A DNA stretch of 30,477 nt from a virus (lineage: Duplodnaviria > Caudoviricetes): positions 1 through 30,477 of the IMG/VR virus record IMGVR_UViG_3300020524_000002. The stretch is one strand, 5' to 3'. The notes under the pieces were generated by a model. It worked only from the letters and a program-made list of their open reading frames with translations, did no database searches and was not told the DNA's origin. A program made the position numbers and the translations under genes. Below, piece by piece: positions 4,293-23,524 of this stretch. Positions within the stretch are counted from its first letter, which is position 1. Each line of letters begins with the position of its first letter.

Positions 4293-4877
4293 ATGAAAAA
4301 AGAAGTAAGACAATACGACATCGACGAGGAAGGTTTCTTGGGTGTCCAAGCAATTTCACTAGTTGAATTTCCTGCTATCGAAGTAGACTTTATCGCGCTC
4401 TCCAAAGAGAAGAAAGTAAAGCTATCTGACATCCAAGAGGAAAGAAAGATGGTGTACGGTGCGGCACTCATTCCCGATAAATTGATCTACAGAGAAGACG
4501 GTGACGGAACGCCATACTACGCTCAGTTCACTTCTAAACTAATTGAGAAGGTAGCGCACAATTTCTTGCTAAAGAATCTGCAACACAACCACACGGTTGA
4601 GCATACTTTTGCCGTGACTGGTTTAACTGTTGTTGAATCGTGGTTGAAAGAAGGCGAGAGTGATAAGTCGGTAGGCTTAGGATTTGAACTGCCGAACGGA
4701 ACTTGGTTTGTTGGTGTTAAAGTTGACAATGAAGAAGTGTGGCAGCAAGTGAAAGAAGGCAAGATTAAAGGATTCTCGATTGAAGGATTCTTTAATGAGG
4801 TGGGTGTTGAAATGTCACGAGGAGAAATAAGAGAAAATTGGGCGAATGAAATAGATAACTACCTATCTTCGCTATAA
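4293..4877 (+). CDS. Prohead maturation protease, XkdF-like (Peptidase_S78_2 type)
   Basis: Motifs MVYGAALIPD, H-x-x-E-H, VVESW and GTWFVGVKV...VWQQVKEGKIKGFSIEG; lies upstream of scaffold and capsid. Confidence 0.85.
   Translation: MKKEVRQYDIDEEGFLGVQAISLVEFPAIEVDFIALSKEKKVKLSDIQEERKMVYGAALIPDKLIYREDGDGTPYYAQFTSKLIEKVAHNFLLKNLQHNHTVEHTFAVTGLTVVESWLKEGESDKSVGLGFELPNGTWFVGVKVDNEEVWQQVKEGKIKGFSIEGFFNEVGVEMSRGEIRENWANEIDNYLSSL
4864..4871 (+). promoter_or_regulatory. Putative Bacteroidota -7 promoter element (TATCTTCG)
   Basis: One-base variant of TAnnTTTG immediately upstream of the 4876-4964 non-coding unit; TTG at 4838-4840 with slightly long spacing. Confidence 0.45.
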
Positions 4878-4964
4878 GATTATTGTGTTTTGTGTTCATT
4901 GTGTTAATGTGTTTTTGTTAAGGTTAGGGAAGCCCGTTGCTAATGAGTGACGGGCTTTTCTTTT
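4876..4964 (+). ncRNA. Putative small RNA antisense to phage start-codon regions
   Basis: Intergenic U/G-rich tract with four TGTGTT copies (4884, 4891, 4900, 4908) around CAT (4897-4899), followed by an intrinsic terminator; 8-12 nt complementarity to several gene starts. Confidence 0.55.
4930..4964 (+). terminator. Rho-independent terminator
   Basis: AAGCCCGTTGC-TAATGA-GTGACGGGCTT hairpin followed by TTCTTTT. Confidence 0.85.
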
Positions 4965-5031
4965 ACTGTTAATAAATATTTGTCTAATGGTTTTCGCTCG
5001 ATATATTATTGGGTGTAAATCAATATACAAA

Positions 5032-5616
5032 ATGAAAGTAATAGAAACATTGAGTGCTATTCTAAAGAAGCACAACATCAAAGGCATTTCGCTTTCTGAA
5101 GTAGTTGAAGTTAAGATGTCGATGGAGGGAACTCTTACAGATGGTACGGTGGTGGCTACACCTAGTGACTCGTTTGAAGTAGGAGCAGAACTTTACGTTA
5201 TCGATGCTGAGGGTAACCCACAACCTGCACCAGATGGAGAGCATACGCTTGACAACGGTTCAGTTATAGTTACCGTTGGCGGCTTCATTACTGAAATGAA
5301 AGAAGCGGAAGTAGCAGAAGAAGAAATGAGTGCAGACATCGCAGCGGTTATCGCAGCAATGGATGAGCAGTTGACATCTATCAAGAATCAACTAGCAGAA
5401 CGTGACACGCAGTTGTCAGCAGTTACAGAAGAATTGTCAGCGGTTAAAACTGACCTTACTATCGCAACGGCTAAGGCTACTGAATTGTCAAAAAAAGCAG
5501 GGGCAGTATCTATCAAAAGTGAAACACCTGCGGCTGAAATCTCAGCAGTAAATTTTTCAAAAAAACAAACTAAAAACGACAGAATCTTAAGCAAGATTAT
5601 GTCACTAAAAAAATAA
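5032..5616 (+). CDS. Capsid scaffolding-like protein
   Basis: Acidic protein with a C-terminal coiled coil between protease and capsid. Likely start is ATG 5032 (MKVIETL) in an A-rich context, not 4987. Confidence 0.7.
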   Translation: MKVIETLSAILKKHNIKGISLSEVVEVKMSMEGTLTDGTVVATPSDSFEVGAELYVIDAEGNPQPAPDGEHTLDNGSVIVTVGGFITEMKEAEVAEEEMSADIAAVIAAMDEQLTSIKNQLAERDTQLSAVTEELSAVKTDLTIATAKATELSKKAGAVSIKSETPAAEISAVNFSKKQTKNDRILSKIMSLKK

Positions 5617-11133: not shown

Positions 11134-12090
11134 ATGACTAACACTCCAAAATGGGAAGAAGTTTTCAAGATTGAAATCCAACTTGAAGGCGAAAAGATTA
11201 CAGACTTCAAAAGAAGATTAGCCAAGAAGTACAACACGACTCTAGGCAACATTGCTTCAAAGTATCACCGTCACGTTACAAACAAAAACAATCCGAAGAA
11301 GTTTGATGAATCAATACCAGTGGCTCATCACTTGCCTAAGTCAGACACAAAAGAAAAAAGCATTATCGATATTGAAGGTAGAAAGGTTCTTGCCTTGTTC
11401 GATGTTCACATTCCATATCACGACATCAAAGCTTTGCATCTGGCAATCGACTACGGTGTGAAGCAGAACTGCGACACTATTTTATTGGGCGGTGACTTTA
11501 TCGATTGTTATGAAATTAGCAGTTTTGAGAAGGACAGAACAAAGCGTTCATTTAGATCAGAGATTCAGTTGACAAAACAATTCTTTTCATTCCTGCGTTT
11601 CAAGTTTCCTAAAGCAAGAATATACGCGAAGATGGGTAACCACGAGGAACGCTACGAGAGATACATCAGAAAGAATGCAAGTGCGCTAGATGGCATTGAA
11701 GATTTCGAGTTGAGCAATCTACTAGGCTTTGACAAGTTTGGAATAGATATTATTCACGGCAAACAGTTGGCACGTATTAACTCTTTAGCGGTGGTACACG
11801 GTCACGAATTTGGCAAGTCAACATTCTCACCCGTGAACGTTGCAAGAGGTCTTTATATGAGGGCTAAATCGTCTGCTATTTGTGGACACTCACACCAAAC
11901 AAGTGAGCATACGGAGAAGGATATTAATGGAAAGTTGACTACGTGTTGGAGCGTTGGGTGTTTGAGTGAATTAACACCAGAGTACGCACCATTTGCGAAA
12001 TACAACCACGGCTTCGCCATCATAACAAAGCGTGGTAGTGAAGGTTTCAACGTGCAGAATTTCAGAATACACGAAGGAAAAATCTTATGA
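11134..12090 (+). CDS. Calcineurin-like metallophosphoesterase
   Basis: Complete motif set DVH, GD..D, GNHE, HGH and GHSH. Likely start is ATG 11134 (ACACAATG context), downstream of the terminator. Confidence 0.9.
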   Translation: MTNTPKWEEVFKIEIQLEGEKITDFKRRLAKKYNTTLGNIASKYHRHVTNKNNPKKFDESIPVAHHLPKSDTKEKSIIDIEGRKVLALFDVHIPYHDIKALHLAIDYGVKQNCDTILLGGDFIDCYEISSFEKDRTKRSFRSEIQLTKQFFSFLRFKFPKARIYAKMGNHEERYERYIRKNASALDGIEDFELSNLLGFDKFGIDIIHGKQLARINSLAVVHGHEFGKSTFSPVNVARGLYMRAKSSAICGHSHQTSEHTEKDINGKLTTCWSVGCLSELTPEYAPFAKYNHGFAIITKRGSEGFNVQNFRIHEGKIL

Positions 12091-12963: not shown

Positions 12964-13151
12964 AGTGATGAAAGTCTTTGAATATAATAATCATTTGGAA
13001 CGTGCGCCATTAGTCGCATTGTGCCGTCTGCTTCTTCAATATAAAATCTTGTAAATCCTTCTTCATATTGTACTCTGTTCGCTTGAAATTCAAAGGCCGT
13101 ACTGTTTGGCATTGCTGCCATAAAACTATGTACCATATCTGTTTTTTTCAT
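12960..13151 (-). CDS. Hypothetical protein
   Basis: 4-nt overlaps with both neighbours, consistent with translational coupling. Confidence 0.7.
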   Translation of the reverse strand: MKKTDMVHSFMAAMPNSTAFEFQANRVQYEEGFTRFYIEEADGTMRLMAHVPNDYYIQRLSSL

Positions 13152-13420
13152 TTGTCACCTCCGTATGTTTGGATGTAGTATTGTTCCGAACCTGCATATT
13201 TTGGCTCATCATCATATTTTGCATCATCCCAAGCGTCAGCAAAACCTATTTCATAAGCATCTTCTATCTGCTCCTTCTCCATTGCTTTGGCTTCTGCGAC
13301 TATTTTTATCATCCATAAATTAACTTGAGAAGATTCAAATTCAGAACCCAAATCTGATTCTAGGTAAAATATTTTACTCAGTTCATTATTCAACCATTCA
13401 ACCGCAGTTTGTTTTGTCAT
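13148..13420 (-). CDS. Hypothetical phage protein (KQTAVEWL...MEKEQI type)
   Basis: Likely start 13420 in an AAACACAATG context; the longer ORF start lies inside a terminator. Confidence 0.75.
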   Translation of the reverse strand: MTKQTAVEWLNNELSKIFYLESDLGSEFESSQVNLWMIKIVAEAKAMEKEQIEDAYEIGFADAWDDAKYDDEPKYAGSEQYYIQTYGGDK

Positions 13421-13441: not shown

Positions 13442-13474
13442 AAAAAAAGTGGGCGCAAACTTAATTACGCCCAC
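13442..13474 (-). terminator. Rho-independent terminator
   Basis: GTGGGCG (13449-13455) / CGCCCAC (13468-13474) stem with A7 at 13442-13448, i.e. a T7 tail on the minus strand. Confidence 0.75.
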
Positions 13475-14499: not shown

Positions 14500-15801
14500 T
14501 TATCGTATAGCATACCTGCCATAGTTCGGATATAGTTCAAAGTACATTCTCATCATCATCATATCTGCGAAGTCGGGAGAGAAGCCGTGTTTCTTTTTGA
14601 TTTCTTCCTTACTGGTAACTGCTTTCTTTCTCTCACGATCCATATTTGCTACTCGCACTACTTCAAGGTGCTTTATTATTTCAGTCTTGTATCTGTCAGC
14701 CGTTATCGTTATCTTGTTTGAATTAATCGATTCTCCTAGCTTAAAATAACACTCCGCTTTCAAGTTCATATAGGTTTCGCTATCTATCGCACGACCACCA
14801 TTGTTGAATGATTGACACTTTAAAATACCAACTACTCCGATACCTAATCCGTCAGCATCAACCACAATGTTAGACAACTTCACGTTTCTTTCTTTGGCTA
14901 AAGTACGAATGAACTCCGCTACTTCGTTTGGATACTTATGCTCCATCATAAACACATCGACCAATGACATTCCCGACCACAGACCAATGATTGTTTTATC
15001 ATTTCCAAGTGCTGCGATGTCGGCAGTGATGTAAGCGGTAGTGCCTATCAATTCGTTTCTAAAACATCTCAACAAGTCATCGTAGTAGTAAAGTCTATCG
15101 TTGCTCTCATCATAGTCCCAATCACCATCTAAAAGTCTTTTACGGTCAATCTCTGGAAGGCGTGACAACTTCTCAAGGTAGGCAGGTTCAAGATTCGGAT
15201 TGTCTGTCGGCAATGCCTTGATGAATGCTCTGTCCTCTCGCAGCGTTCCATTTCGTGCAGCGTCGAAGTAGTCAGCGTATAACCACCCTTTAGTTGGGTT
15301 GCAGGAGAGTAATCCTTTCGGCACACCATTGATTAAGTTATAACGCACACGGCTATCTAAAATATCGATTGCTCGTTGAGATACTTCTGCTACCTCGTCC
15401 ACAAAATAGTCTGTGATTTCAATCGAACCAAGACGGCTGAACTCAGGGTCTGACGGCATAAAACCTAAGTCCATCAAGATAATTTGCGAACCATTGTAGA
15501 ACTTGATAACGTGGTCTTGACCGTTGTATGTGTAGTGAGTGCCAGGGCGAAGTCCCATCTGGTTAGCAATCGTCCAAAAGGTAGCCATTGTTGACTGCCT
15601 AAGTCGCTTTAATTCTGCACGACCGATTAAACCTCTGGTGTTTGCATATTTTAATCTGCGATTAATCTGCCAAGAACACCCAAGAAATGTCTTACCACCA
15701 CCTGCACTACCGCCATATAACACCGTTTCTGTTATCAAATCTTTTGGAGATAACAAAGTCAATGCTTCATCTTGGCGGTTAGTATATTGGGGTGTGTACA
15801 T
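14500..15801 (-). CDS. terL: Terminase large subunit
   Basis: Walker A GGSAGGGKT, Walker B YFVDEV, coupling motif SCNP, DNP.L...Y, RLL.GDW, nuclease Asp in ADIA and C-terminal SPDFAD. Confidence 0.95.
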   Translation of the reverse strand: MYTPQYTNRQDEALTLLSPKDLITETVLYGGSAGGGKTFLGCSWQINRRLKYANTRGLIGRAELKRLRQSTMATFWTIANQMGLRPGTHYTYNGQDHVIKFYNGSQIILMDLGFMPSDPEFSRLGSIEITDYFVDEVAEVSQRAIDILDSRVRYNLINGVPKGLLSCNPTKGWLYADYFDAARNGTLREDRAFIKALPTDNPNLEPAYLEKLSRLPEIDRKRLLDGDWDYDESNDRLYYYDDLLRCFRNELIGTTAYITADIAALGNDKTIIGLWSGMSLVDVFMMEHKYPNEVAEFIRTLAKERNVKLSNIVVDADGLGIGVVGILKCQSFNNGGRAIDSETYMNLKAECYFKLGESINSNKITITADRYKTEIIKHLEVVRVANMDRERKKAVTSKEEIKKKHGFSPDFADMMMMRMYFELYPNYGRYAIR

Positions 15802-16334: not shown

Positions 16335-17117
16335 TTATTTGTTTTTTGTTAAATAATTCAGGTACATAATCACTTTCATTTCCCGTGCAATACTGTTCGT
16401 ATACTGCTCCTTTAGTCGTGGGTTGGCTTGAATCCGTTGAAGCTTTGTCTTGCCGATTTCTTGTTGATCGTGAACGAGTCGTTTCGCCCTCTGCTTAAAA
16501 CTCAACCACTCGTCATCCGTCCAATAGTCATCGGTCACTAGACCACTTTTGTACAAGTTCTCTAACATCACAAACCCCATTAATTCAGCAGCCATATAGT
16601 TACCTAGCTTCGCATTCTCGATATCTTTATTTAACGAATCATTAAACCAATTCAATGACTCGTTAGCTGATTCTAACTGTCGTGCAGGTTCGATGTAGTT
16701 GACATTGACTTCATTCCATTTCTTCATCGCGTCCATTCTCAACTGGTAGTATTCGCTCAACACACTACCGACATAGGTCGCGTCAAATGATTTGAATGAT
16801 GTCAACTTGTTCGCCAACTTACTAGCTGCATTGAACTCAAAGGCTAACTTGAAATCAACCGTTGTACACCAACTAAAGTTATCAGAGACAAACGAGTGAA
16901 GTTGTTGTATTGGTTCGATTCTGTCGGGCTGCGGTATGCCGTGAAAAACAAGCTGAGCGTAGTATTCAACCGCGAAGTCCTTACCACTAATCAATGCGAT
17001 TAGTGGTGCTTCTTTTGCAGCGATTATCTTCCTGAAGTCAACGTTAGCGACCTTAGTCAAATTGGCTAAGGAGTGATTGAAGCCCCTCGCTACTTGTGCC
17101 TTTTCCAAATGATCCAT
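16335..17117 (-). CDS. Hypothetical protein, possible helicase-loader position
   Basis: Directly downstream of and overlapping the replication-protein-like gene, as in lambda O/P-type pairs. Function inferred from position only. Confidence 0.55.
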   Translation of the reverse strand: MDHLEKAQVARGFNHSLANLTKVANVDFRKIIAAKEAPLIALISGKDFAVEYYAQLVFHGIPQPDRIEPIQQLHSFVSDNFSWCTTVDFKLAFEFNAASKLANKLTSFKSFDATYVGSVLSEYYQLRMDAMKKWNEVNVNYIEPARQLESANESLNWFNDSLNKDIENAKLGNYMAAELMGFVMLENLYKSGLVTDDYWTDDEWLSFKQRAKRLVHDQQEIGKTKLQRIQANPRLKEQYTNSIAREMKVIMYLNYLTKNK

Positions 17118-17442
17118 TGTTAATTGTTTTAGTGGTTACAAATTTACTCATATCCCAAGCAGCTACCGCAGCTCGTCTCCAGTCTTTCAATTTCTTATTG
17201 CCATACTTCCAATCCTTCAACTCGTAGTGGGCGATGAACTTGGATGCGAATGTAATGCCGTCTGATTGACTGCCGCCCGTCTTAGATTGAAAGAATGAAA
17301 CCACATCTTCCATTGAAGGGGCAACGAACTCGCCTACTATGTGCTTGTGGTATTCATTCATTAGTTTGATGCACTCGTCTGGAGAGATGCAATCTTGATA
17401 GGTTGCTTTTGCGTTTTTGTAAAAGAAGTCTTTTGCCGTCAT
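17053..17442 (-). CDS. Replication-initiator C-terminal-like domain protein
   Basis: F.APS.EDV..F ... KF..HY....W..G.KK.KDW..A...W resembles the C-terminal domain of phage replisome organisers. Confidence 0.6.
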   Translation of the reverse strand: MTAKDFFYKNAKATYQDCISPDECIKLMNEYHKHIVGEFVAPSMEDVVSFFQSKTGGSQSDGITFASKFIAHYELKDWKYGNKKLKDWRRAAVAAWDMSKFVTTKTINNGSFGKGTSSEGLQSLLSQFD

Positions 17443-17479: not shown

Positions 17480-17890
17480 TCAGAGTTCTCCAGTAAATAA
17501 AATTTTAAATCGTTTCAACAAACCAATCTTTGGCTTTGGATTGCAAAATTTTACGTTTGATACTCGAATCTTTGGCTCTGAAAAAACAATAGGTATTTGT
17601 TTATCTGTTGGTTTGTTTCCTGATGCTTTAACATCCTTGTAATGCTCCTTAATTAGCTCAACACACTTATCTACTCTGCTATCGTGCAGCCTAACAATGC
17701 CGCGATAGTACCCTTGTGAATCTTTGTAAACAACGCCTGATTGAACTAGTATTTTAGTCAACCAATGACCAATCTTGACATCCCCTAAAGCTTCATTAAG
17801 TGATGTATAATTTCTTGAATTGAGCGTCTTGATTAAGTGCATTAATCGTTTACGCAGCACTTCTTTGTCCTTAGTTAATTTTTGTCTCAT
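17480..17890 (-). CDS. Hypothetical basic protein (possible winged helix)
   Basis: Likely start 17890 (MRQKLTKDK) in an AAAAACACAATG context; L...GVV.K...G.Y pattern. Confidence 0.65.
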   Translation of the reverse strand: MRQKLTKDKEVLRKRLMHLIKTLNSRNYTSLNEALGDVKIGHWLTKILVQSGVVYKDSQGYYRGIVRLHDSRVDKCVELIKEHYKDVKASGNKPTDKQIPIVFSEPKIRVSNVKFCNPKPKIGLLKRFKILFTGEL

Positions 17891-17903: not shown

Positions 17904-18068
17904 TTATCGTTTTGGAAATTCTGCAATCTTTATAATGTAGTCCTCACCTAGTCCATACTTTTCACAGACCTCAGTAATAAGTTCAGCAGACGGATGAAGC
18001 TTTCCGATTTCCTTTCGGTCAAGAATTTCTTTGATGCAGCATTGTACTGCCAGTGTGTGTTGTTTCAT
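17904..18068 (-). CDS. Small hypothetical protein (54 aa, absent from the ORF track)
   Basis: Manually translated MKQHTLAVQCCIKEILDRKEIGKLHPSAELITEVCEKYGLGEDYIIKIAEFPKR; fills the operon gap. Confidence 0.7.
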   Translation of the reverse strand: MKQHTLAVQCCIKEILDRKEIGKLHPSAELITEVCEKYGLGEDYIIKIAEFPKR

Positions 18069-18079
18069 TGTTCGTGAAA

Positions 18080-18544
18080 TTATTTAGGTTGTTGCAGTGT
18101 TTGTGAAATCTTGGCTAAAGTAGTGAAGCCCCTCAGATTCAAATACTCATTCAAACTAATTAACATTTGGTTTAACTTTTTGTCATAACCTAGAGTATTA
18201 GCGCATCGTTTGGTCGCGTGTATCACAGATGCGTGGTGACGGTTAAATATCGCGGCTAATCTTGTTAAGGTCATTCGCTGCGAGAATTCCATTTGAATAC
18301 AGTAAAGGGCAATGTGTCTTATGTAAACGATGTCCTGCAACCTGCTCTTACTTTGGATTTCTTTCATTCCAATCGAGTGGTAGCATTGTGACCATTCGCA
18401 GATAGCGGAAATGAACTTGGATAGCTCGATATCGTCAACGGTTGAGTGGTCGCGTGACTTGTTCTGAGCGATAATTAACTCGATGAACTCTTGCTTATTC
18501 GCGTCCTTCACCATCGGTAGAAGTGTGTTTATGTCTATACTCAT
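18080..18544 (-). CDS. DnaA C-terminal (Bac_DnaA_C-like) HTH protein
   Basis: SKSR.QDIV..RHIA.Y ... TL..LA..FNRHHASVIHA matches the DnaA domain IV pattern; there is no AAA+ domain. Confidence 0.8.
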   Translation of the reverse strand: MSIDINTLLPMVKDANKQEFIELIIAQNKSRDHSTVDDIELSKFISAICEWSQCYHSIGMKEIQSKSRLQDIVYIRHIALYCIQMEFSQRMTLTRLAAIFNRHHASVIHATKRCANTLGYDKKLNQMLISLNEYLNLRGFTTLAKISQTLQQPK

Positions 18545-19399: not shown

Positions 19400-19783
19400 T
19401 TATTTAATTGTTACTGAAATAGTTGATTTTCCTTCTACTTTTTTCGCAGGTTCAATCTGCAATCCGTTCTCATCATAGAGTTCAGAGTTGACTGCTAACT
19501 GCGCGAGTTCCTGCATTGTCTTGAGTTTTGCTGACAAGTGATTCACTTGAATGCAGTTTGAATAGTCCCAACGCGATGCAGCATTCTTAAGTTCTACTTT
19601 CGCACCGAACTTGTCAAACGTGCGCTCACCGTATCTGGAAGCTTCATCCAGTGCGTACGGCTGCACGTTAGCTATCACAGAAGCAAGTGCCTTCTCTAGC
19701 TTCTTCAAGTTGATGTAGGCTTCAAGTGCGTTGGCATTGCCGTCAATCACTTGTTGTTGTAAGTCGAATAGTGTGTCTATCAT
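19400..19783 (-). CDS. Hypothetical protein
   Basis: 127-aa helical ORF with an ACACAATG start context. Confidence 0.75.
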   Translation of the reverse strand: MIDTLFDLQQQVIDGNANALEAYINLKKLEKALASVIANVQPYALDEASRYGERTFDKFGAKVELKNAASRWDYSNCIQVNHLSAKLKTMQELAQLAVNSELYDENGLQIEPAKKVEGKSTISVTIK

Positions 19784-20034: not shown

Positions 20035-20186
20035 ATCTCTTTGAGTGTTTCGATTATTGATTTCTTTAATCTTTCGTATGGTGTTGACTTGGTAGTGGAA
20101 GCAATGTACTTGCTCTGCTCATTGTAGTTCAGTCTGTCAAGCGGCTCGGCTGAGGACTGGACACATATAAATTTTCGTTGTTTCAT
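20031..20186 (-). CDS. Small hypothetical protein (51 aa, absent from the ORF track)
   Basis: Manually translated MKQRKFICVQSSAEPLDRLNYNEQSKYIASTTKSTPYERLKKSIIETLKEI; ATGA overlaps at both ends. Confidence 0.75.
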   Translation of the reverse strand: MKQRKFICVQSSAEPLDRLNYNEQSKYIASTTKSTPYERLKKSIIETLKEI

Positions 20187-20530
20187 TTTTTTAGGTTGGC
20201 TTTAATTTGGTTATCAAGAAGTAGCATAGAGTCAGAAGCTAGGAATTGATCTACACCTGCTACCCAAACTTCAAATAGTCTGTCAAACTCTGAGGCATCC
20301 GAGTCAAGCGGACAACTGAACTGGCAAGATGCGTTAATGTCTCCGCCATCCAATAGCACTAAATGAATGGTGCAGGTGTATGGGTAGTTACCAAATGATA
20401 GGCTGCTAGATGCTTGTTTTGTGTTTATCCAACTAATTGTTTTAGTTGGGTTGCTCAATGGCTCATAAACTCTTACGTTGTCAAATACTCTTTGCGCAAG
20501 TGTGATGAAATGTTGAAATGGTGTGTTCAT
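20183..20530 (-). CDS. Hypothetical protein, first gene of the leftward operon
   Basis: 115 aa, starting about 40 nt downstream of a consensus promoter. Confidence 0.75.
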   Translation of the reverse strand: MNTPFQHFITLAQRVFDNVRVYEPLSNPTKTISWINTKQASSSLSFGNYPYTCTIHLVLLDGGDINASCQFSCPLDSDASEFDRLFEVWVAGVDQFLASDSMLLLDNQIKANLKK

Positions 20531-20571: not shown

Positions 20572-20602
20572 CAAATGTACTACAACTTTCCGATTGCGCA
20601 AA
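20572..20602 (-). promoter_or_regulatory. Leftward Bacteroidota primary-sigma promoter
   Basis: The minus strand reads TTTG (20599-20602), 19 nt, TACATTTG (20572-20579): the full -33/-7 consensus with canonical spacing. Confidence 0.8.
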
Positions 20603-22159: not shown

Positions 22160-22242
22160 TTTTTTCTTAGGGGGACTTTTTTCTTTGTTTTCTTTCTTTC
22201 TTTTTTGTCCTTTTTTCTTTCTTTCTTTTCTTTCTTTTTGTT
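22160..22242. repeat. Polypyrimidine/polypurine low-complexity tract (TTTC-like units) with a G5 run
   Basis: About 65 nt of almost pure T/C on the + strand after TTAGGGGGAC; intergenic. Confidence 0.85.
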
Positions 22243-22303: not shown

Positions 22304-23524
22304 ATGAATGTATTATCACTATTCGACGGAATGTCTTGCGGTCAACAGGCATTAGAACGTGCAGGTATTAAAGTAGACAACTACTATGCAAGTGAAATTG
22401 ATAAACACGCAATTTCAATTACTCAAAAGAATTATCCAAATACTATCCAGTTAGGATCAGTTGTTAATGTTGATATTAATAACCTGGAGAAAATTGATTT
22501 GCTTATTGGCGGCTCACCTTGTCAAAGTTTTTCTTTTGCCGGTAAGAGAAAAGGAATGAGTACAAAGGATGAGATTGAGATATTGACACTAGATCAATAC
22601 CTAGAGCTTAAAGAGCAAAATTTTGAGTTTGAAGGTCAGTCCTATTTGTTTTGGGAGTATATGAGGATTCTAACCGACATCCGAAAAACTAATCCTGATG
22701 TAAAGTTTCTTTTGGAGAATGTAATGATGGGCGAAAAGTGGGAGAAGGTATTGAGTAAGGCTATCGGTGTTAATGCAATCGAGTTTAATAGTTCATTGGT
22801 CAGCGCACAAAATAGACGGAGATTGTATTGGACAAACATCGGAATGAAGCCATCGGGACTTTTTGGAGACTTGGAGAGCGTAATTGTTCAGCCAAAGGAT
22901 CAATGCATTTTGCTTAAAGACATTCTTGAAAGTGAAGTTGATGAAAAGTATTTTTTAAGTGAGAAATTAATTAGTTCTTTTCAAATACACGAACAAAGAC
23001 ACAAAGAAAAAGGCACGGGTTTTTTTTGGAAGCCAACAGAGGGTGATGTAAAGGGGAATTGTTTAAGAGCAAATGGCGCATTAGCTCCAACCGATAACAT
23101 TATTATTCATAACCTAATGCAACGTTCATCGACAACTGGCAAAGGCGGAACAGGTCATTTAAGTAGAAATGATGGAAAGACTTACTGTCTTGATACAGGC
23201 AACACTAATGCAGTTGAAGTTAGAGAGGTTAGGCAGTTGAATAGAAATAATGAATCAAACAACAATACTCAACCATTTCAACAGAATAGAGTTTACGATA
23301 TTAATGGCATCTCACCAGCACTACAAGCTCAGTTGACAAAAGGAAGTACAATGATTAATACTCCGAGGATCCGCAGACTAACACCAACAGAATGTGAGAG
23401 GCTTCAAACGGTTAAAGATTCATACACGGAGGGCGTGAGCGATACGCAACGCTATCGAATGTTAGGCAACGGATGGACAGTTGAAGTTATTAAACACATT
23501 TTCAGTTACCTAAATAATAATTAA
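22304..23524 (+). CDS. DNA (cytosine-5)-methyltransferase
   Basis: Motif I LSLFDG, catalytic GGSPCQ, ENV, Q.R.R.YW, RRLTPTECERLQ and YRMLGNGW. Confidence 0.95.
   Translation: MNVLSLFDGMSCGQQALERAGIKVDNYYASEIDKHAISITQKNYPNTIQLGSVVNVDINNLEKIDLLIGGSPCQSFSFAGKRKGMSTKDEIEILTLDQYLELKEQNFEFEGQSYLFWEYMRILTDIRKTNPDVKFLLENVMMGEKWEKVLSKAIGVNAIEFNSSLVSAQNRRRLYWTNIGMKPSGLFGDLESVIVQPKDQCILLKDILESEVDEKYFLSEKLISSFQIHEQRHKEKGTGFFWKPTEGDVKGNCLRANGALAPTDNIIIHNLMQRSSTTGKGGTGHLSRNDGKTYCLDTGNTNAVEVREVRQLNRNNESNNNTQPFQQNRVYDINGISPALQAQLTKGSTMINTPRIRRLTPTECERLQTVKDSYTEGVSDTQRYRMLGNGWTVEVIKHIFSYLNNN

Follow-up and report, generated by a model that had tools for sequence, protein, structure and literature searches.

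At the 3' end of its head maturation protease gene, a phage with a probable Bacteroidota host carries a conserved element whose GU-rich strand is complementary to the starts of several of the phage's own non-structural genes, and which co-varies among relatives with the start of one of them, gene 17442 (genes are named here by the position of their start). The most likely reading, which we hold with moderate confidence, is that the element works in the manner of the small RNAs FopS and GibS, but against early genes of the phage itself, gene 17442 being the best candidate. By analogy with these RNAs, it would probably be a phage-made brake on early protein synthesis.

The DNA analysed (the window) is the 30,477-nt record IMGVR_UViG_3300020524_000002, a whole phage record with direct terminal repeats at its ends. 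The plus strand carries the tape measure, head protease (4293-4877), scaffold, capsid, portal and lysis genes, together with the sigma-like gene 21023 and a methyltransferase, and a leftward operon runs from 20530 to 12288. The large terminase gene (14500-15801) lies in this otherwise non-structural operon, distant from the head genes and without the start signature described below. TAnnTTTG boxes precede leftward genes at 20579, 17146 and 13463, and the nearest isolates by capsid are Nonlabens phages (27% identity); a Bacteroidota host is suggested by both. Minus-strand hairpins with U tails were seen within the leftward operon at 13463-13474 and 18693-18670, the former holding the TAnnTTTG box in its loop and arm directly ahead of gene 13420, and a long run of T and C only (22160-22240) lies upstream of the methyltransferase gene. 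Searches of the window found no tRNA or tmRNA and no Rfam match at the gathering score.

The unit at the end of the protease gene

The protease gene (4293-4877, plus strand; PHROG head maturation protease matches, PF14550 on homologues) ends with a stop codon at 4875-4877. Its last codons contain a -7-like promoter box, TATCTTCG (4864-4871, plus strand), of the TAnnTTTG type with one change; a canonical -33 element at the usual spacing from it is absent. The 3' UTR contains a GU-rich, mostly single-stranded tract (4878-4925, plus strand), with a mean unpaired probability of 0.66 and an opening cost of about 2 kcal/mol, which by its pairing statistics mirrors a Bacteroidota translation start. 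Within it, four TGTGTT copies (4884, 4891, 4900 and 4908) flank one CAT (4897-4899), the anti-AUG of a 17-nt seed core at 4892-4908. The motif TTAAGGTTA follows at 4918-4926 on the plus strand; it is held in common with the FopS consensus of the Rfam alignment and, judged by the leaders of viral contigs, is the mirror of a leader word frequent in Bacteroidota. The intrinsic terminator (4926-4965, plus strand) has 16 pairs and a U tail at 4926-4961 (fold z -3.84; 0 of 200 shuffles as good), and an RNA-library contig ends in its loop. With the start placed by FopS spacing, a plus-strand RNA of about 90 nt (4876-4965) is predicted. Separate from this unit, a promoter-like element at 4979-5009 on the plus strand (TTTG, 19 nt, TATATTAT; both boxes kept in relatives) may serve the scaffold-capsid operon.

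The first-pass annotation had located the box, the four repeats, the CAT and the terminator correctly, and had described a non-coding unit between protease and scaffold. That description holds for tract and terminator, but not for the box, which lies inside the protease reading frame and codes for L-S-S; the unit therefore overlaps the protease gene and is its 3' UTR too. Like a 3' UTR-derived small RNA, it shares its terminator with the gene, the tract lying between protease stop and terminator. The 90-nt RNA may instead be cut from the protease mRNA or act as its 3' end. RNA data came from four of nine runs labelled freshwater metagenome, all as assembled contigs whose depth cannot rank genes. 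One contig of 330 nt (4618-4947, 16 differences), the only one over the tract among the RNA pieces listed, passes from the protease gene through the tract into the terminator loop. It shows co-transcription of tract and protease gene and, though strandless, fits plus-strand termination and 3' UTR status. Positions 4948-5064 are uncovered among the pieces listed, which carries no weight as evidence.

Is the unit conserved beyond what the neighbouring gene requires? Among nine loci with 98-100% protease identity, the tract is identical in seven. One relative at 99% has a C>T change in the CAU that still permits a G-U pair and removes the minus-strand ATG, and in one of the nine the tract is joined into the scaffold gene. 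At L002:3578-3620 the tract is fused straight into the interior of the scaffold gene, with terminator and promoter deleted, a junction that is either a deletion or a misassembly. At 87-89% protease identity the 17-nt core is unchanged in eight of eight loci, with indels on both sides of it, while four-fold sites have drifted to 44-61% identity; the comparison of relatives proposed in the first-pass annotation thus came out in favour of the core. The -7-like box is invariant in all nine aligned loci down to 73% protease identity (four-fold sites 33-61%), an invariance which could also reflect constraint on the protein. The 73% relative keeps box, GU tract and terminator without a CAU, and relatives at 63-65% have only a short UTR, with a GU-rich tail lacking CAU ahead of the terminator. 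It had also been considered beforehand that the CAT might simply be the start of a translated minus-strand ORF. The frame from this CAT has 35 codons in the window and 6-8 in the 88% clade, and a conserved minus-strand ORF or minigene was rejected on this variation.

A wider survey covered 132 distinct protease loci. A terminator follows the stop codon in 65, and among these a -7 box lies within 25-110 nt on the minus strand in 57 and on the plus strand in 9. At the same place a large sister clade has a unit that is built alike but inverted, with a minus-strand -7 box in 48 of 50 loci; counting exact boxes, it has six spellings that differ mainly in the two free positions, against a shuffle rate of 0.16. 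There the terminator is two-way, and the minus-strand box precedes a GU-rich tract, often with CAU. In both orientations promoter and terminator thus bracket the GU (antisense) strand. Since the inverted unit carries its own minus-strand -7 box, it cannot be the protease 3' UTR in that clade, and the sharing of the gene's terminator does not hold there. The inverted form is one well-supported clade and therefore counts as one origin; its -7 box might in part belong to a late promoter, but no second promoter of this type was found. The mirrored ATG of the inverted loci opens a frame of 2-12 codons in 24 of 26, runs off the contig end in one, and in one (L154) runs in frame into the scaffold gene.

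Some further arrangements were observed. Loci L142-L154 have a small conserved hairpin and the word CCCGACAAA between protease stop and two-way terminator, some with an extra inserted hairpin. After the protease stop, L149 and L151 have units on the plus strand whose -7 box is wholly intergenic, together with a AGAUUUAGGUU word resembling the FopS consensus. A third arrangement occurs in G007 (50% protease identity), where the box lies in the end of another gene and is followed by a GU tract with CAU and a terminator. This unit (L627:4310-4440) stands behind a 346-aa gene, and 14 nt of it match the leader of gene 20530 in the window. Starts of the form ACACAATG number 4 of 51 in G007, 5 of 47 in the window, 4 of 44 in G001 and 4 of 41 in G002, with 0-1 in eight other records.

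Pairing and co-variation with early gene starts

The first-pass annotation had proposed that the plus-strand RNA is antisense to the start codons of many non-structural genes. On recomputation the match lengths it gave were the same, and energies were calculated with ViennaRNA (duplex plus opening energies) rather than IntaRNA. The best predicted target is the conserved 129-aa early gene at 17053-17442 (minus strand; net -21.1 kcal/mol, rank 1 of 42 starts), whose perfect match of 10 nt over the AUG becomes a duplex of 9 + 11 pairs when a 3-nt bulge is allowed. It is followed by gene 17890 (17480-17890, minus; 10 nt, net -18.3) and by gene 20530 (20183-20530, minus; 12 nt, net -18.1), the first of the leftward operon, preceded by a TAnnTTTG box at 20579-20572. 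Further predicted targets are a metallophosphoesterase gene (11134-12090, plus; 9 nt, net -15.8) and the first gene behind the box at 13463 (13148-13420, minus; 10 nt, net -15.1). Weaker ones are 19400-19783 (minus; 9 nt, net -12.8), 17904-18068 (minus; 8 nt, net -12.5) and the DNA methyltransferase gene at 22304-23524 (plus; 8 nt, net -11.9). With accessibility included, the top 13 of the 42 starts are all non-structural. An early gene at 18080-18544 with a DnaA C-terminal helix-turn-helix (Pfam E 2e-11) is among the better predicted targets.

The late genes behave differently, as had been noted for a few structural starts. At all 17 late or lysis starts the match is 6 nt or shorter, and none has ACAATG, which is present at 9 of 25 non-structural starts (Fisher p 0.005) against a background of 49 among 1031 ATGs. 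The mean duplex energy of the 18 leftward starts is -18.9, compared with -15.9 +/- 1.0 for dinucleotide shuffles of the tract, of which 1 in 300 was as good. For the late starts 234 of 300 shuffles paired as well as the tract, and for the rightward non-structural starts 102 of 300. Both controls suggested in the first-pass annotation, the count of start tags and the shuffling, therefore agree with selective complementarity to early starts.

This selectivity has its bounds. The proposed antisense relation stands for several non-structural starts, but not for the whole class, since 16 of the 25 lack the tag; nor is silencing of a class through one tag supported, as the tag varies by sub-clade and co-variation centres on one or two genes. 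Counting against selectivity, raw duplex energy finds equally strong sites within coding regions: of the 29 non-self sites that ranked highest in a raw scan of 12,176 genome windows, only 7 are gene starts, and the top site (-32.1, +8306) falls inside the portal gene. True FopS also pairs with starts of the window phage beyond shuffles (z -2.6), and 65 of 81 matches to a 15-nt core are the reverse of open frames, i.e. the seed mirrors a very common phage start. Part of the fit of tract to starts is thus generic.

Do tract and starts change together in evolution? To this end, 25 tracts were paired with the opposite-strand starts of 26 phage records, the starts in relatives being chosen by a simple A-richness rule, and row and column means were removed. 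The matrix has no tract for G008, G009 and G028 and no column for G010 and G024, which have too few early genes. Tracts of the window clade pair preferentially with window-clade starts (-2.5 to -5.2 kcal/mol), those of three inverted sub-clades likewise favour theirs, and a fifth sub-clade is weak; since the five are not independent, they amount to about four contrasts, all in the expected direction. Sub-clades differ in preference despite 95-100% identical proteases. Of 23 tracts, 19 place their own genome among the first 9 of 26, and the other 4 place it 12th-21st. Own non-late starts exceed dinucleotide shuffles in six of seven phages (0 of 40 in each) and late starts in none; the exception is the G015 tract, for which 10 of 40 shuffles were as good. 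For G007, whose early genes share the strand of the protease, unlike the opposite-strand starts of the matrix, this shuffle test used that strand.

The signal centres on the orthologues of gene 17442, which rank fifth or better among own targets in 15 of the 23 genomes. Among 30 shared gene families this one co-varies best (-4.1 kcal/mol, best of 120 clade permutations), although it was seen and then confirmed in the same data, so that with 30 families the permutation rank alone is not significant. It was, however, already the top start from the window alone. It is still the best of 24 with the window clade left out, and letter-shuffled tracts give -0.15 +/- 0.58 against -4.49 for this family. 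Second comes an early gene absent from the window clade (-2.9, best of 24), followed by -1.0; structural genes show no co-variation among the 30 families. The co-variation test asked for in the first-pass annotation thus gave tracts that prefer the early starts of their own group, with the 17442 family in front.

What might gene 17442 encode? Its product is probably the C-terminal part of a replication initiator, for which the evidence is weak: a 250-aa orthologue has low-scoring matches to DUF1376 (E 0.009) and to a primosomal protein (E 0.014), and Atlas neighbours with replication-type families score 0.82-0.83. A Pfam search of the 129-aa window protein gave no family, and a fold search with its model (pLDDT 61.6) gave no PDB match at E <= 0.001. 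We regard a replication role as a lead only.

Relation to FopS, GibS and other phage RNAs

The first-pass annotation knew of no described system like this one, but such systems exist in Bacteroides. FopS RNAs (RF04319; PMC11697453) consist of a single-stranded 5' seed followed by a terminator, are made from a sigma-ABfr promoter and pair over many mRNA starts; they repress translation, bind the RRM protein RbpB, which also binds 3' UTRs, and repress host outer-membrane transporter mRNAs. The same paper describes a 3' UTR-derived member, FopS-14, and notes one FopS copy in a phage. GibS acts likewise with a long seed, repressing translation over start codons (PMC7366714). In Bacteroidota, Shine-Dalgarno pairing is not used and upstream adenines matter, according to PMC6847099. 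Judged by its build, the mechanism proposed here is that of the FopS and GibS RNAs of Bacteroides thetaiotaomicron and is not new. The window unit is like them, as far as those texts describe them, in its GU-rich single-stranded 5' part with CAU, the UUAAGGUUA word, the intrinsic terminator, the one-to-many pairing over start codons (in silico for the window unit) and a probable host that does not use Shine-Dalgarno pairing. Its -7 box is of the sigma-ABfr type but has one change, lies in coding sequence and has no -33, whereas the inverted clade has exact boxes. It differs from FopS in having its seed centred on the AUG, mirroring AC-rich leaders, in its predicted length (about 90 nt, against the 65-70 nt given in the same texts), in being a single copy in a freshwater phage where FopS is described as multicopy in Bacteroidaceae genomes, and in being found in either orientation at one locus. 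Its predicted targets are its own early genes, and not the host glycan transporters described for FopS and GibS.

Is this likeness one of descent? FopS gave the highest-scoring weak Rfam match, which at 18.3 bits against a cut-off of 56 (E 1.3) did not reach the level of sequence homology. The FopS model had no match at cut-off in the phage genome, and the R1/R1' 5' seed of FopS is absent from the unit, whose own, different seed resembles it only in GUGUU...CAU and lies some 15 nt inside the predicted 5' end. A profile of 11 FopS-type or FopS-like phage units, with the window unit excluded, missed the window unit in 448 kb; on the window alone the unit was its top match, at 7.8 bits and E 0.088. 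As the profile fails to recognise the unit, the likeness to FopS is one of build rather than of established homology. A search of genome contigs for a host-encoded copy by the promoter-seed-motif pattern gave four matches, none with a terminator. The promoter-seed-TTAAG pattern gave 76 viral matches, and of the 73 new loci only those in the window phage's clade have a terminator.

FopS-type units as such are present in 61 of 80 viral loci (L421-L500) taken from at least 120 pattern matches; all five FopS-type units tested pass the Rfam cut-off, and nine of nine divergent ones do not. FopS-type small RNA genes are thus common in viral contigs, compared with the single phage copy noted in PMC11697453. 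Divergent promoter-seed-terminator units were seen in L423, L438, L448 and L489, in L447 and in L500. Of 80 matches to core plus motif, 50 are the reverse of open frames, i.e. the whole module reads as a reversed Bacteroidota start. In one phage (L491:5487-5560) the start of a real 223-aa early gene is covered exactly, on the opposite strand, by a FopS-like unit, possibly a cis-antisense precursor state; an origin of anti-start units from a reversed gene start is plausible.

Lambda OOP, lambda PreS and Vibrio phage VpdS are likewise phage-encoded and regulate phage or host mRNAs by base pairing, but OOP is cis-antisense to one mRNA and PreS is Hfq-dependent, with host genes as its studied targets; in the accessible text of bioRxiv 10.1101/2024.10.31.621285 none of the three is described as a trans-acting mirror of the phage's own early-start signature. 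The window unit is not encoded opposite its predicted targets as OOP is: these are 6-17 kb away, and there is no conserved opposite-strand gene. A literature search for a phage RNA that silences its own early starts, which most subscription literature lay outside, returned only other systems.

Competing explanations and biological meaning

One alternative, which we consider unlikely, is that RNA and mechanism are as proposed while the real targets are mRNAs of the host or of competing phages; the early starts would then merely share the host's start dialect, and the late genes would avoid it to escape host shut-off. FopS itself represses host outer-membrane transporter mRNAs (PMC11697453), and PreS acts on host mRNAs (bioRxiv 10.1101/2024.10.31.621285). 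The abundance of FopS-type units in gut viral contigs and the 14-nt match of the G007 tract to the leader of gene 20530 in another phage also speak for such a use. A host dialect leaves unexplained why a single conserved phage gene shows the co-variation when at least 27 other families do not, and why sub-clades with nearly identical proteases differ; phage and host target sets may nevertheless both be real.

It is quite unlikely that the tract is an ordinary 3' UTR, whether a U/G-rich spacer, a site for an RbpB-like RRM protein or the relic of a deleted gene's start, with complementarity as a by-product of composition and shared ancestry. This would accommodate the co-transcription with the protease gene, the GU-rich tails without CAU in the 73% and 63-65% relatives, the binding of RbpB to both FopS and 3' UTRs (PMC11697453), the reading of the module as a reversed start and the overlap of the L491 unit with a real gene start. 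Yet order-preserving shuffles lose the fit, inverted copies with their own conserved promoter box are not UTRs, and a relic would neither have preserved a core of 17 nt while synonymous identity fell to about 50% nor track gene 17442. Very improbable is a functional AC-rich strand, acting as a minigene or as a decoy start titrating either ribosomes or a protein that binds starts. The minus strand does read as a strong start, with its ATG at 4899 and the 35-codon frame, and in L154 the mirrored ATG continues into the scaffold; but frame length is kept neither in the 88% clade nor in the inverted loci, L006 has lost the ATG and many inverted units lack it, the minus strand between 3647 and 13463 has no TAnnTT[TC]G box with C or T as the next letter, and the promoter box always points along the GU strand.

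Under the preferred reading of an RNA aimed at the phage's own early genes, a plus-strand RNA of about 90 nt would be made from the -7 box in the protease end, or as the 3' end of the protease mRNA, or both, and would end at the terminator with its GU-rich seed exposed. The seed would pair with a few of the phage's non-structural mRNAs across their A-rich leader and AUG. Chief among them would be gene 17442, probably a piece of a replication initiator, and the genes that come first in the leftward transcripts. Ribosomes, which in this host would do without Shine-Dalgarno pairing, would be kept from loading, and late structural starts, avoiding the signature, would escape. The likely use would be to hold down the synthesis of early and replication proteins after the RNA has accumulated. 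The early-to-late switch of the first-pass annotation is unsupported, since the box and the early promoters share one host-sigma type.

The orientation flip and the co-variation of seed and target raise the unit above a bare sequence likeness. To our knowledge, few phage-encoded trans-acting RNAs have been characterised. A bolder scenario, possible but somewhat doubtful, is that lytic freshwater Bacteroidota phages carry, beside the capsid operon and in either orientation, an RNA that mirrors their own early starts, co-evolves with the start of a replication gene and throttles early and replication synthesis, while structural genes escape by the design of their start sites, the whole forming a post-transcriptional switch of programme. 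The same scenario would make the unit one of a wide, undescribed class of phage anti-start RNAs that originate as inverted gene starts. Bacteroidota read their starts through A-rich leaders and not through Shine-Dalgarno pairing, which makes a mirrored start a cheap and evolvable repressor. The co-variation provides natural swaps of seed and target, so that the idea is directly testable with reporters, and it offers a route for the origin and spread of FopS-like RNAs on phages.
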